Assembly: GCA_044344255.1 (NCBI GenBank)
Contig: JBIJDH010000002.1
Span: 263,893 to 327,892, forward strand
Length of the DNA stretch: 64,000 nucleotides
Origin: Myxococcota bacterium
GTDB lineage: Bacteria; Myxococcota_A; UBA796; UBA2385
Direction: 5' to 3'
The translations under genes were made by a program, and so were the position numbers. How positions within the stretch are numbered: position 1 is the stretch's first letter; every line of letters starts with the position of its first letter. Below the pieces are notes generated by a model. That model was not told the origin of the DNA. It saw only the letters and a program-made list of their open reading frames with translations, and did no database searches. Shown piece by piece: positions 15,018 through 19,489 of this stretch.

Positions 15018-15863
15018 ATGCGCGCGCTGATCACAGGGGCGCAGGGGCGGCTCGCCGCCCGCTTCATCGAGCGGATGGGCGTCACAGACGAGCTGCTCGC
15101 CCTCTCGCCGGTCCCCGTGGCGCATCTCGGCGTGCCCTGCGCCGTTGGGGAGATCGACACGCCCGGCCTGATGGAGGCGCTGGCGCCGGGCTGCGAGACC
15201 CTCGTCCACTTCGCCCCCGACGCTCTCCGCACGATCGAGTCGCCCGAGGCCCGGGAGGCCGCCACGCGACGGCTGCTCGAGGCCGCGGTGCGGGTGGGGA
15301 TCCGTCGCCTCGTCTACGTCAGCTCGGCCTGGGCCCCCGAGGCGGGGGACGCGGCCGCCGAGGCCCTCGCCCTCGCGGGCGGCCCCCTGCGCGGCGTCCT
15401 GCTGCAGACCCCGCTCCTCCTCGGCCCCGATGACGCCTGGGGCCACGCCGCCGGGCTCCTTCGCTGGGCCCTCGACCCCACCCTCCCGGCGCTCTCGGTG
15501 GCTGAGGCGGAGCGCCCGATCAGCTTCATCGACGAGCGAGACCTCCAGGGCGCCCTCGAGGCGGCGCTCCACCGCGGCCAGGCGGGTCGCTGTTACCCCC
15601 TCGCGGGGGGGCTGGCGGGCTGGTCGGCGCTGCGGGACCGCTGTCGTTGGCTGGCGGCGACCGCCGAGCCGGAGGCCGCCTTGCGCTTGCACGGGCCGGT
15701 CGACCTCCGCTATGGGCAAGTGGGCCTCGACCCCGACGACCGGGAGGCCCGCCGCGACCTCGGCTGGTGGAACCGCGACCCCGACCGCAGTCTCGACGAC
15801 GCCGTCCGGGCCTGGCTCCGCCGGGAGGCGACCGTCTCGCTTACAGGCTCCGCGGATCCGTGA
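15018..15863 (+). CDS. NAD-dependent epimerase/dehydratase-like protein
   Basis: N-terminal Rossmann-like MRALITGAQGRLA. 281 aa. 3' end overlaps the convergent aconitase-family gene by about 23 nt. Confidence 0.5.
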   Translation: MRALITGAQGRLAARFIERMGVTDELLALSPVPVAHLGVPCAVGEIDTPGLMEALAPGCETLVHFAPDALRTIESPEAREAATRRLLEAAVRVGIRRLVYVSSAWAPEAGDAAAEALALAGGPLRGVLLQTPLLLGPDDAWGHAAGLLRWALDPTLPALSVAEAERPISFIDERDLQGALEAALHRGQAGRCYPLAGGLAGWSALRDRCRWLAATAEPEAALRLHGPVDLRYGQVGLDPDDREARRDLGWWNRDPDRSLDDAVRAWLRREATVSLTGSADP

Positions 15864-17766
15864 GCTTTCCGGTGACGGCGCTGGCCGCCGCGACGGCCGG
15901 GCTCACGAGGTAGACCGGGCCGGGGCCGCCCATGCGGCGATCGAAGTTCCGGTTGGTGGTGCTGGCGGTGACCTCGCCTGCGAGGGGGATCCCCGGCCCG
16001 TTGCCGATGCAGCTCCCGCAGCCGGGCTCGCTGACGACCGCGCCCTTGGCCCGGAAGAGGGCGAGCAGGCCCTGGGCCTCGGCGGCCTCGGCCACGGCGG
16101 TGGAGGAGGGGGTGACCGTGACCCGCACGCCCGCGTGGATGTGGCGCTCGCGCAGCACGTCGGCGGCGGCGCGCAGATCGGAGAGTGAGCCCCCGGTGCA
16201 GCTCGCGATGACGACGTTGTGGATCGCGACCTCCCCGGCCTCCGAGAGGGCCACGCGGTTGCGGGAGTCGCCCGGCGTGGCCACCGTCAAGGGGACCAGG
16301 TCGAGATCGACCTCGATCACGCGCTCGTAGTGGGCCCCCTCGTCGGGGTAGACCATCCGCTCGGCGTAGTCGTGGCCGCGCTGGGCCTTGAGGAACTCGA
16401 AGAGGGGGGCGCAGGGCTCGACCACGCCGGTCATCAGCCCACCCTCGACGGTCATGTTGGTGATGACCGACAGCTCGTCGACGTTCCACTGGTCGAGCCC
16501 GGGGCCGCCGAGCTGGATGACGCAGGTGTCGGTGGGGCCGCTCCGCCAATGCTCCTCGCGGAAGTAGGGGTCACCGATGAGGTGCAGCACGAGGTCTTTG
16601 GGGGAGAGGACCCCGCGGGCGCTGCCGCGCACCAGGACGCGCACCACCTTCGGCACCGTGACGGGGATGAGGCCCGTGCGCAGCGAGAAGGACATCGCGG
16701 TGGAGCCCACCCCGAAGGCGAAGGCGTTGAGCACGCCCGCGGTGGGGGTGTGGGAGTCGGTGAGGATGACGATGTCGCCGGGGCGGGCGTAGTCCTCGAC
16801 CACGATGCGGTGGCAGACGCCGGCGGGGTAGGGCCGACCGGGCCCGTGGACGCGGAGCCCGTGCTGCTCGGCGGCGTCGAACATCTCGCGGGCGAGCTGG
16901 CGGGCCGGCTCGAGGCGGGCCTTCTTGACCGAGGCGGGCACGGTGGCGTGATCGATGAGGACGAAGTGGTCCTCGAAGCAGGCCACCTGATCGGGATCGT
17001 GCACCGGCGCGGCGCCGAAGGCCTCTGTGTAGAGTGCCATGCACATGCCGGCCGTGTATTCGTGCATGCCCCGGAAGCCGGCGCGGCAGAGGACCTGATC
17101 GCCCGGGCCCACCGCGCCGAGGCCGAAGGTGGGGCCCGCCTCGCCGCGGCCGGTCCAGGCGGCGGCGGCGATGATCTTCTCGACCGCGTTCATCGGCCGC
17201 GAAACGACCGCGGTGTCGTACCAGGGCACGGTCTCGCCAGCGAGCCAGGCCATGCCGTACTGGAGCAGACCCCCGGCCTCCGACACCTGCCGGAAGAAGG
17301 GGGGGAGCGCGTCGTAGAACTCCGTGATGTCGACGTCCTGGCCGCCCTTCAGGCGGTCGAGCACGCCGAAGTCCGTGGTGAAGGGCATCCCCCCGTAGAC
17401 CATGTTCTCCTGGAAGATGCGCTGGAAGCTGTGGGCCACCACGAGCTCGATGCCGGCGCCCTGGTGCGCCACCACGGCGACCTCGCGGCTGGAGCCCGAG
17501 CCATAGGCGTCGCCGCCGACGATGACCTGAAAGCCACCCTCCTGGACAGACTCCTTCTTCACCGTCTCTTTGAAGTTCTCGAGGAAGTAGGGGCCCAGGA
17601 TGGGGGGCGTGTAGCCGAGGGTGCAGGCCGCCCCGGAGATCATGGCGTCGGTGTTGACGCCGTAGGTCAACGCCTCCCCGCCGTAGTCCAAGTCGGCGCC
17701 AGCGAGCTGCGCGCGGAGGGGTGCCTGATCATCGGTCAAGTAGAGGATGCGGCCCTTGAGCTTCAT
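15841..17766 (-). CDS. aconitase family protein (LeuD-like swivel domain N-terminal to LeuC-like catalytic domain)
   Basis: 641 aa from MKLKGRILYLTDDQ. Swivel-domain motifs (GDAYGSGSSRE..) precede a catalytic domain carrying the Fe-S ligand cysteines (..SCTGGS.., ..GCGSCIGN..) and TTNRNFDRRMG. The upstream 148 aa of the track ORF are an antisense artefact. Confidence 0.85.
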   Translation of the reverse strand: MKLKGRILYLTDDQAPLRAQLAGADLDYGGEALTYGVNTDAMISGAACTLGYTPPILGPYFLENFKETVKKESVQEGGFQVIVGGDAYGSGSSREVAVVAHQGAGIELVVAHSFQRIFQENMVYGGMPFTTDFGVLDRLKGGQDVDITEFYDALPPFFRQVSEAGGLLQYGMAWLAGETVPWYDTAVVSRPMNAVEKIIAAAAWTGRGEAGPTFGLGAVGPGDQVLCRAGFRGMHEYTAGMCMALYTEAFGAAPVHDPDQVACFEDHFVLIDHATVPASVKKARLEPARQLAREMFDAAEQHGLRVHGPGRPYPAGVCHRIVVEDYARPGDIVILTDSHTPTAGVLNAFAFGVGSTAMSFSLRTGLIPVTVPKVVRVLVRGSARGVLSPKDLVLHLIGDPYFREEHWRSGPTDTCVIQLGGPGLDQWNVDELSVITNMTVEGGLMTGVVEPCAPLFEFLKAQRGHDYAERMVYPDEGAHYERVIEVDLDLVPLTVATPGDSRNRVALSEAGEVAIHNVVIASCTGGSLSDLRAAADVLRERHIHAGVRVTVTPSSTAVAEAAEAQGLLALFRAKGAVVSEPGCGSCIGNGPGIPLAGEVTASTTNRNFDRRMGGPGPVYLVSPAVAAASAVTGKLTDPRSL

Positions 17767-18719: not shown

Positions 18720-19489
18720 TCGAGCTCCAGCACCACGGGTGCGTGATCGGAGGTCTTCTCGAGCTTGCGGGTGGCGCGATCGATCTCCACCGACCGGACC
18801 CGGGCGAGCACGCTCCGGCTCACGAGGTGGTGGTCGATGCGCATGCCGAAGCCGCGCTGGAAGCCGCCGCCGCGGTAGTCCCACCAGGTGTGGGCGTAGC
18901 GGCCGCTCTCGTCGCCGTGGAGGTGGCGCCAGGCGTCGGTGAGGCCGAGGTCGAGCAGGGACTGGAAGCGCCGCCGCTCGGGCTCGCTGCAGAGCACCTT
19001 GTCCTTCCAGGCGACAGGGTCCCAGACGTCGCGGTCGTCGGGGGCGATGTTGAAGTCTCCGCAGACCACGAGGGCGTCGTCGGCCGGGGTGTCTGTCGGG
19101 AGCCAGGCCTGGAGGGCGTCGAGCCACTCGAGCTTGTAGGCGTACTTCTCCGAGCCTACCTCTTGGCCGTTCACGACGTAGAGGTTGACCACCCGAACCC
19201 CGCCGGTGGTGGCGGCGATGCCGCGGGCCTGCGGATCGCCGGCGAGGGGCACCCCGGTGACGACGTGGCTGAGCGGGGTTCGGGAGGCGATGGCCACGCC
19301 GTTGTAGGTCTTTTGGCCCGAGAGCACGACGTTGTAGCCGGCCTCGTCAAAGACCTCGTGGGGGAACTGCTCCTCGACACACTTGAGCTCTTGGAGGCAG
19401 AGCACGTCGGGCTTGTGGGTGGCCAGCCACTCCGGCAGGAGGTGGAGGCGGGCCCGGATCGAGTTGATGTTCCACGTCGTGATGCGCAT
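18716..19489 (-). CDS. xth: exodeoxyribonuclease III
   Basis: 257 aa with MRITTWNINSIRAR.., ..LCLQELK.. and ..DFNIAPDD.. (EEP nuclease family). Confidence 0.92.
   Translation of the reverse strand: MRITTWNINSIRARLHLLPEWLATHKPDVLCLQELKCVEEQFPHEVFDEAGYNVVLSGQKTYNGVAIASRTPLSHVVTGVPLAGDPQARGIAATTGGVRVVNLYVVNGQEVGSEKYAYKLEWLDALQAWLPTDTPADDALVVCGDFNIAPDDRDVWDPVAWKDKVLCSEPERRRFQSLLDLGLTDAWRHLHGDESGRYAHTWWDYRGGGFQRGFGMRIDHHLVSRSVLARVRSVEIDRATRKLEKTSDHAPVVLELE

Follow-up and report, generated by a model that had tools for sequence, protein, structure and literature searches.

A 641-residue aconitase-family protein encoded in a 64-kb window (the whole stretch of contig JBIJDH010000002.1 analysed here, ~71% G+C) is predicted to be a single-chain fusion of a LeuD-type and a LeuC-type module that is found across the myxobacterial order Nannocystales, and in one lineage of that order a COG0523-family GTPase gene recurs upstream of it. 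In the window the two genes follow xth on the minus strand, the three being adjacent in the order xth, COG0523, aconitase-family gene. The main interest of the locus is this combination of an order-wide fused enzyme and a lineage-restricted, recurrent COG0523 gene; it is not the microsatellite inside the COG0523 gene, nor the coupling of that gene to xth. Comparison of gene orders and sequences indicates that the adjacency is probably inherited synteny, with the COG0523 gene as a facultative passenger, rather than the mark of a dedicated partnership.

The aconitase-family gene (15841..17766, minus strand) matches Pfam Aconitase_C (PF00694, the swivel domain) at residues 76-126 with 47.5 bits and Aconitase (PF00330) at residues 234-633 with 247.7 bits. 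Its N-terminal LeuD-type swivel domain (domain 4; residues 1-~187, 17206..17766) was delimited by the Aconitase_C match and by alignment to the Methanocaldococcus jannaschii small subunits 3vba and 2pkp, and its C-terminal LeuC-type catalytic module (domains 1-3; residues ~190-641, 15841..17199) by the Aconitase match, alignments to 4kp1, 4kp2 and 1c96, an AlphaFold2 model and Foldseek. Residues 15-159 of LeuD (3vba) align with residues 36-170 of the fused protein and residues 34-443 of LeuC (4nqy) with residues 215-641, and a segment RPMNAVEKIIA resembles a LeuC N-terminus. Because both modules align over whole subunits, we read the gene as a LeuD-then-LeuC fusion with a very short linker. 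C523 (16200..16198), C583 (16020..16018) and C586 (16011..16009) align with the cluster cysteines of mitochondrial aconitase and LeuC; the GSSRE motif carrying the catalytic Ser and Arg lies within GSGSSRE at residues 89-95, and DSHT and NRNFxxR are also present. The protein is thus predicted to be a [4Fe-4S] hydro-lyase of the aconitase superfamily, with domain order 4-1-2-3 and no HEAT domain.

The AlphaFold2 model, built from a 47-sequence alignment, has a predicted local distance difference test (pLDDT) score of 94.7 and a predicted template modelling (pTM) score of 0.94. Alignment depth mattered: 14 sequences gave a pLDDT of 62.9, and the addition of distant fused homologues raised it to 94.7. 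In a Foldseek search with this model the best domain matches were M. jannaschii LeuC and HacA (target TM-score, TMt, 0.89), while Escherichia coli AcnB (1l5j) was the only solved chain to align end to end in sequence order (query TM-score, TMq, 0.74; 710 columns); the Foldseek probability was 1.0 for LeuC, HacA, AcnB and mitochondrial aconitase alike. An initial annotation of the locus had put forward the AcnB arrangement minus its HEAT domain, and both the Pfam order (4-1-2-3) and the structural match uphold it.

The specificity loop of the swivel domain, located by small-subunit alignment, is SGAACTLGYT (residues 44-53; 17637..17608, minus strand). Its CTLGYT stands where the isopropylmalate/citramalate isomerase 3vba has RYLVYT and the homoaconitase 2pkp has PYLRTT; it has no Arg, keeps the Tyr, contains a 2-residue insertion and is invariant in the family, as is an HD to HE change in a large-subunit motif. 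The homoaconitase loop Arg (Arg26), which recognises the γ-carboxylate, is presumably the equivalent of Arg580 in pig aconitase. The loop thus leans towards an isopropylmalate isomerase-like or a new substrate rather than citrate.

The fused enzyme's 120 closest database proteins share its architecture throughout, at 73-100% identity. A scan with one genome per species found a relative in 239 genomes, the best 80 of which (71-82% identical) are Nannocystales-type Myxococcota: Enhygromyxa salina, Nannocystis, Nannocystaceae isolates and many metagenome-assembled genomes, some of them obviously mislabelled. Across Nannocystales the enzyme is strongly conserved and usually encoded by a stand-alone gene. 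In a 50%-identity protein library the family is one full-length representative, followed by a gap down to 28-44% identity, where ~50 other full-length 4-1-2-3 clusters (P0246-P0378) rank above LeuC-only and 1-2-3-4 fused proteins. These distant fusions keep the cluster cysteines and catalytic motifs and differ in their specificity loops; their names, if any, are generic. The window's protein falls below the cutoff of every curated NCBIfam model, the top one being the LeuC-family model NF001614 (301.7 against 385 bits), in agreement with the earlier suggestion that it lies outside the characterised housekeeping families. On these comparisons the enzyme is part of a large, uncharacterised group within the aconitase superfamily: the ~50 clusters of single-chain, small-then-large fusions form an unstudied branch, one member of which is near-universal in Nannocystales. 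To know on which substrate the enzyme acts would close a gap in the picture of myxobacterial central or amino-acid metabolism. Stop-to-stop open reading frame clustering over 81 loci gave no informative conserved metabolic neighbour, the clusters being mostly shadow reading frames of high-GC DNA; an aldehyde-dehydrogenase-like gene lies near the enzyme in one Nannocystis subclade. A literature search for Nannocystales or Nannocystis together with aconitase found no link.

The enzyme might yet be simply the lineage's housekeeping tricarboxylic acid cycle aconitase, or its only isopropylmalate isomerase, in fused form, with nothing special about the operon; we regard this as a reasonable possibility, short of an even chance. 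A core enzyme would typically show what is seen here, namely 71-82% identity over an order-level group and a stand-alone gene whose neighbours vary; in addition, no catalytic or cluster motif is missing, and relatives carry the IMG label 3-isopropylmalate/(R)-2-methylmalate dehydratase. However, the protein scores below the cutoff of every aconitase, isopropylmalate isomerase and homoaconitase model (302 against 385 bits at best, 87 against 1287 for AcnB and 83 against 686 for AcnA), and no Arg is present in the loop where aconitase has Arg580 and homoaconitase Arg26, the invariance of this family-specific loop and of the HD to HE change likewise arguing for a different enzyme. Moreover, among the distant fused loci looked at (L094, L095), one 40%-identical fused relative lies 6 kb from a canonical 909-residue AcnA.

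The COG0523 gene (308 residues; 17793..18719, minus strand) matches the cobW G-domain PF02492 with 144.6 bits (cutoff 20.7) and CobW_C PF07683 with 33.7 bits (cutoff 22). A Walker A motif, GFLGSGKT (residues 15-22; 18677..18654), follows the pattern GxxGxGK[ST] in the orthologue alignment; the metal-binding CxCC motif is CICC (residues 70-73; 18512..18501), kept in 121 of 121 aligned orthologues, and the RxKG motif is RVKG (residues 259-262; 17945..17934), kept in all but one of the same 121. RxKG is the only invariant motif of the C-terminal domain in the superfamily and acts as an arginine finger (PMC13001444, a 2026 preprint). With Walker A, CxCC, a His/Asp-rich linker and the C-terminal RxKG domain all present, the protein is predicted to be a complete COG0523 G3E GTPase, as had been proposed at the outset. 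CobW was rejected as an identity (TIGR02475, 170.9 bits against a cutoff of 332.1; no Rfam match or cob genes seen in the window), as were ZigA (NF038288, 94.3 against 600; no Zur/Fur-type palindrome found) and a YjiA-type protein (PRK11537, 90 against 361). Since it falls under all three cutoffs, we leave it as an unclassified COG0523 protein.

Upstream, xth (257 residues; 18716..19489, minus strand) matches TIGR00195 with 263.3 bits (cutoff 182.55), TIGR00633 with 261.5 bits (cutoff 99.05) and Pfam Exo_endo_phos, and is predicted to encode an ordinary exodeoxyribonuclease III. Its TGA stop (18718-18716) overlaps the GTG start of the COG0523 gene (18719-18717) in a GTGA at 18716..18719. This GTG has a GGAG placed 5 nt upstream and is the sole start that fits the N-termini of 120 homologues, which usually begin 4-8 residues ahead of the IPxLVVSGFLGSGKTT P-loop. 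A 26-nt spacer (17767..17792) separates the COG0523 TAG from the ATG of the aconitase-like gene and carries a Shine-Dalgarno sequence, GGAG, 8 nt ahead of that ATG. No intrinsic terminator was found between the three genes on the coding strand, and the three likely form an operon-like, co-transcribed unit. The initial annotation was accurate on the operon-like layout with its GTGA overlap, and its 27-bp interval before the aconitase-family gene is in fact 26 nt. The G+C content at third codon positions is 0.93-0.95 in each gene, so none of them looks recently acquired, and recent horizontal acquisition of the COG0523 gene was rejected on this uniformity. The aconitase-like gene and a convergent gene for a 281-residue NAD-epimerase-like protein (15018-15863) overlap at their 3′ ends by 23 bp (15841-15863), and this overlap is called in locus L162 as well.

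The three genes form one same-strand unit in a high-GC, uncultured, Nannocystales-related myxobacterium. In the arrangement we propose, transcription would start, very probably, in the 100-bp region shared with a divergent gene for an Oar-like TonB receptor; translation of the COG0523 gene would be coupled to that of xth through the GTGA overlap, and the aconitase-like gene would be translated from its own Shine-Dalgarno sequence in the spacer.

Conservation of the linkage was surveyed in 80 species loci plus metagenomic contigs, with genes placed by tblastn and mapped on a neighbour-joining tree of the enzyme. The tree has three large clades, and xth or a COG0523 gene occurs near the enzyme only in the window's own. 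In the two other clades, which include Enhygromyxa and Nannocystis, neither gene lies within 6 kb of the enzyme, which is still 71-77% identical there. Of the 29 loci in the window's clade, 11 have a same-strand COG0523 gene upstream of the enzyme (the window itself, L007, L019, L023, L033, L034, L041, L043, L087, L089 and L096); in L041 and L096 a gene for a cyclic nucleotide monophosphate (cNMP)-binding protein and a 173-residue gene sit between the two. An additional pair, with a 1-nt gap, is found on the P0190 contig. Coupling of xth to the COG0523 gene is rarer, being found in three lineages only.

All loci of the window's clade share one backbone: an ATP-binding cassette (ABC) ATPase gene on the minus strand, ttcA on the plus strand, a variable slot, the enzyme gene on the plus strand and, further on, YbjN on the minus strand and two genes of unknown function. 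With one backbone in all of them, every linked case descends from a single ancestral locus. Where the slot upstream of the enzyme does not hold the COG0523 gene, it is occupied by a type I methionine aminopeptidase (MetAP) gene on the opposite strand, an EpmA-like gene, an EAL response regulator, an FG-GAP protein together with an oxygenase-like gene, or nothing, and we conclude that it is a local rearrangement hot spot. The EpmA-like gene encodes a paralogue of the class II synthetase (lysine aminoacylase), with 269 bits to TIGR00462. MetAP is a known client of the eukaryotic COG0523 protein ZNG1; MetAP and COG0523 genes never occur together at the surveyed enzyme loci. In sister genomes the slot between xth and the enzyme lies at 6977-7849 in L001, 6748-7962 in L006, 3900-5117 in L041 (where it holds the cNMP-binding gene), 4747-5940 in L014 and 3220-6004 in L064.

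The COG0523 gene would accordingly be a facultative member of an ancestral block running from the ABC gene and ttcA through the variable slot and the enzyme to YbjN, and, with a facultative gene in one ancestral block, the adjacency is best explained by a gene order inherited vertically, in which the COG0523 gene has often been lost or replaced. The operon linkage that had been proposed for the COG0523 and aconitase-like genes therefore stands in part: it is kept in over a third of the clade's loci, always within one ancestral locus, and is absent near the enzyme in other Nannocystales.

Several features of the pair weigh against passenger status. All placeable COG0523 orthologues of at least 53% identity precede the enzyme gene and share its strand, directly adjoining it in L007, L019, L023, L033, L034, L043, L087, L089 and P0190; the spacers between the two are short, from a 4-nt overlap (L007) up to 79 nt; and the pair is kept while the gene upstream of it varies between xth, the TonB receptor and ttcA. 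Such placement, spacing and persistence form the pattern expected of a functional pair. In addition, at least 13 COG0523 matches have a longest contig equal in size to that of an enzyme match. These observations favour a dedicated partnership, in which the COG0523 protein would be a GTP-driven metallochaperone or repair factor of the fused hydro-lyase, co-expressed with it on one mRNA; it might restore Fe(II) to the labile iron position of the cluster after oxidation, or shield the apo-site from Zn or Co. For a non-zinc COG0523 protein there is a precedent in Nha3 of Fe-type nitrile hydratase.

We nevertheless consider such a partnership unlikely. The COG0523 gene is missing at the locus in ~60% of the same clade and from the enzyme's neighbourhood in all other Nannocystales, where the enzyme is kept at high identity (71-77%) in its absence; it is the least stable member of the block, in which other adjacencies are equally or better conserved; and unrelated genes have been inserted into the pair in L041 and L096. 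The linked cases all go back to one ancestral locus, so the two genes have not come together again independently. COG0523 relatives of ~50% identity (L091, L092) do not adjoin the enzyme, and for one of the two the metagenome-assembled genome has its enzyme gene on another contig. No aconitase-family neighbour was found at any of 65 distant COG0523 loci and no COG0523 neighbour at either of two distant fused homologues. No paper in the library searched links a COG0523 protein to aconitase as a client; the co-mentions examined concern a metal-sparing switch of aconitase paralogues in Acinetobacter.

The fused hydro-lyase is the only positional candidate for a client of this COG0523 protein. As the true clients of bacterial COG0523 chaperones are mostly unknown (PMC13001444, the preprint on ZigA and MigC), a recurrent, tightly spaced COG0523/hydro-lyase pair is a concrete candidate on positional evidence. 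The full version of the proposal, in which the clade-specific COG0523 protein serves the hydro-lyase as its dedicated chaperone for metal insertion or repair and the hydro-lyase catalyses a reaction other than those of aconitase, isopropylmalate isomerase and homoaconitase, strikes us as highly doubtful. If true, an iron-sulfur enzyme would for the first time be counted among COG0523 clients, with the implication that Fe(II) is delivered to the labile cluster iron.

The presumed promoter of the unit lies in the 100-bp divergent intergenic region (19490..19589) between xth and a TonB-dependent receptor gene (19590..22490, plus strand). Neither a sigma-70 consensus nor an AT-rich palindrome was found in this region, where the sole inverted repeat is a GC one of 7 nt; relatives have a recurring TACA-containing element in the corresponding stretch. 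The receptor, a conserved neighbour with Pfam CarboxypepD_reg, Plug and β-barrel domains, adjoins xth or the COG0523 gene in L006, L012, L014, L019, L023, L027, L064 and L089. It matches siderophore and zinc receptor models weakly and marginally; its domain set is, we assume, that of the Oar type of myxobacteria rather than of a ZnuD-type zinc importer. The element GGGAAnnnnTTCCC occurs upstream of the COG0523 gene in L019, L023 and L089, close relatives only, and is absent from the window. A palindrome like GGGAAGTTGTTCCC followed by TTCTACA is likewise kept in the divergent region between receptor and COG0523 genes of these three loci (L019 4900-4960, L023 3190-3250 and L089 5880-5930) and is absent from the window.

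A COG0523 gene beside a TonB-dependent receptor gene is a classic layout of a Zur regulon, as for ZigA (PMC13001444), and in L019, L023 and L089 the receptor is directly divergent from the COG0523 gene, whose product has both CxCC and a His-rich linker. On this basis the COG0523 and receptor genes could form a low-zinc unit, with xth and the aconitase-like gene riding along. The check for Zur/Fur boxes upstream of xth that the initial annotation had called for gave no match within 3 mismatches to Zur and Fur consensus patterns, either in the 100-bp region or anywhere in the window, the consensus used being proteobacterial and perhaps not that of Myxococcota. No zur, znuABC or zinc-independent paralogue was found in the 64 kb, and the same holds near the COG0523 gene for zinc-uptake genes, cob genes and nitrile hydratase; no Rfam family reaches threshold in the window, and hence there is no cobalamin (B12) riboswitch. 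With no Zur box, an Oar-like receptor, no zinc genes and a ZigA score of 94 against 600 bits, a zinc-limitation module is not supported and appears very improbable.

The His/Asp-rich linker of the COG0523 protein, GHDHDHDHDHDHDHAAHAHLHE, is encoded in part by a microsatellite of perfect hexamers, which reads (CACGAC)6.7 on the coding strand (18053..18092, minus strand). Tandem Repeats Finder reports a period of 6 with 100% matches and 6.7 copies, translated as G-(HD)6-H, and of the window's 25 tandem-repeat rows it alone is a perfect array with at least 6 copies. The array had been described as a perfect (GTGGTC)n encoding (His-Asp)7; the perfect repeat is as stated, and the count is six pairs plus a His. 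The linker is variable in all 120 orthologues, in length as well as in composition, with 2-12 His (for example HHHHHHH, HDHDHD and HGHDGHGHDGH), and closes with a conserved HxH[ED]xF. A metagenome scan with the COG0523 protein, dominated by the query's own HDHDHDHD pattern, returned only distant COG0523 genes (n = 65; 28-46% identity), 63 of which encode (HD)≥4 tracts 8-20 residues long. Such His-Asp tracts thus recur within the family and are no peculiarity of this locus.

As the repeat unit is a hexamer, tract length can change without a frameshift, and in-frame slippage may have produced the (HD)6 tract. By analogy, the tract would be this lineage's form of the variable, His-rich, low-affinity metal-binding linker of COG0523 proteins. 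The sole independent assembly of the identical sequence is the Logan contig of SRR31616103, which occurs in 3 samples; it begins inside the (CACGAC)n array (L162:1-40 corresponds to ~18082-18043 of the window), and no alternative repeat length can be read from it. An assembly break at a perfect repeat of 40 bp could account for this.

Elsewhere the window is ordinary myxobacterial chromosome, with SelB, TtcA, an aminotransferase, a Ser/Thr kinase and a riboflavin operon among others. The conserved upstream backbone gene ttcA (24223-25215) encodes an Fe-S tRNA 2-thiocytidine synthetase (390 bits), and the gene for the selenocysteine elongation factor SelB (27085-29088) is nearby. In L087, L034 and the P0190 contig the COG0523 gene comes right after ttcA and is itself followed by the enzyme, so that at these loci it lies between two genes for Fe-S enzymes. 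Downstream of the Oar-like receptor, a 612-residue protein (22364-24202) contains collagen-like GDTG-type tandem repeats (23315-23556; periods 9, 18 and 36); the receptor is also followed by a protein of unknown function in the relatives L006 and L089. A 14-nt unit, GAGGGGCATCAGCC, is present in three copies of 96% identity (24201-24242) between the converging ends of the 612-residue gene and ttcA. An imperfect (CGGTGG)6.5 array (14841-14879) encodes poly-Gly near the C-terminus of an MXAN_6640-type putative HExxH metalloprotease (13618-15009).

Compared with known aconitase-superfamily systems, the fused enzyme is closest to the archaeal-type (type II) isopropylmalate/citramalate isomerase and homoaconitase of M. 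jannaschii (MJ0499/MJ1277 and MJ1003/MJ1271; PDB 4kp1, 4kp2, 3vba and 2pkp), which are the best matches for both modules at 30-31% identity. It has in common with M. jannaschii LeuCD and HacAB the GSSRE and DSHT motifs, the three cysteines, NRNF and a loop Tyr as in YLVY. Unlike LeuC/LeuD and HacA/HacB, it is a single polypeptide in small-then-large order, and membership of LeuCD/HacAB was rejected on NF001614, given above, and on TIGR02086 (282.6 against 410), TIGR01343 (276.4 against 385.7) and TIGR02087 (60.8 against 109). AcnA and mitochondrial aconitase were rejected because their domain order, 1-2-3-linker-4, is the reverse of that seen here and the loop at residues 44-53 has no Arg (NF006757, 82.7 against 686; TIGR01340, 136.7 against 825). 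The fused LeuC-LeuD "putative aconitase" of PRK07229/TIGR01342 resembles the enzyme in being a single chain of ~650 residues with the same two module types and a comparable score (293 bits); its module order is the opposite, 1-2-3-4, and the scores of 293 against 612 and 224 against 719 are below cutoff.

The enzyme shares with E. coli AcnB the order 4-1-2-3 and differs from it in having no HEAT-like N-terminal domain, in a PF00694 swivel of the LeuD/AcnA type and in an identity of 20%. AcnB's own swivel belongs, we believe, to a separate Pfam family. AcnB membership was rejected for want of a match to the AcnB N-terminal domain and on scores of 87.5 against 1287.2 (TIGR00117) and 118 against 782 (NF006690). 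Given this low identity and the type of swivel, we take the protein to be an independent fusion and not an AcnB relative. The structural study of AcnX gives the order 4-1-2-3 for AcnB and AcnX type I, and the present fusion group is absent from its eight subfamilies (PMC8184944). The COG0523 protein, for its part, resembles ZigA, MigC, YjiA, ZagA, CobW, Nha3 and ZNG1 in its G3E P-loop domain, CxCC motif, His-rich linker and CobW_C domain with RxKG; unlike in the known COG0523 systems, its neighbour here is an Fe-S hydro-lyase.

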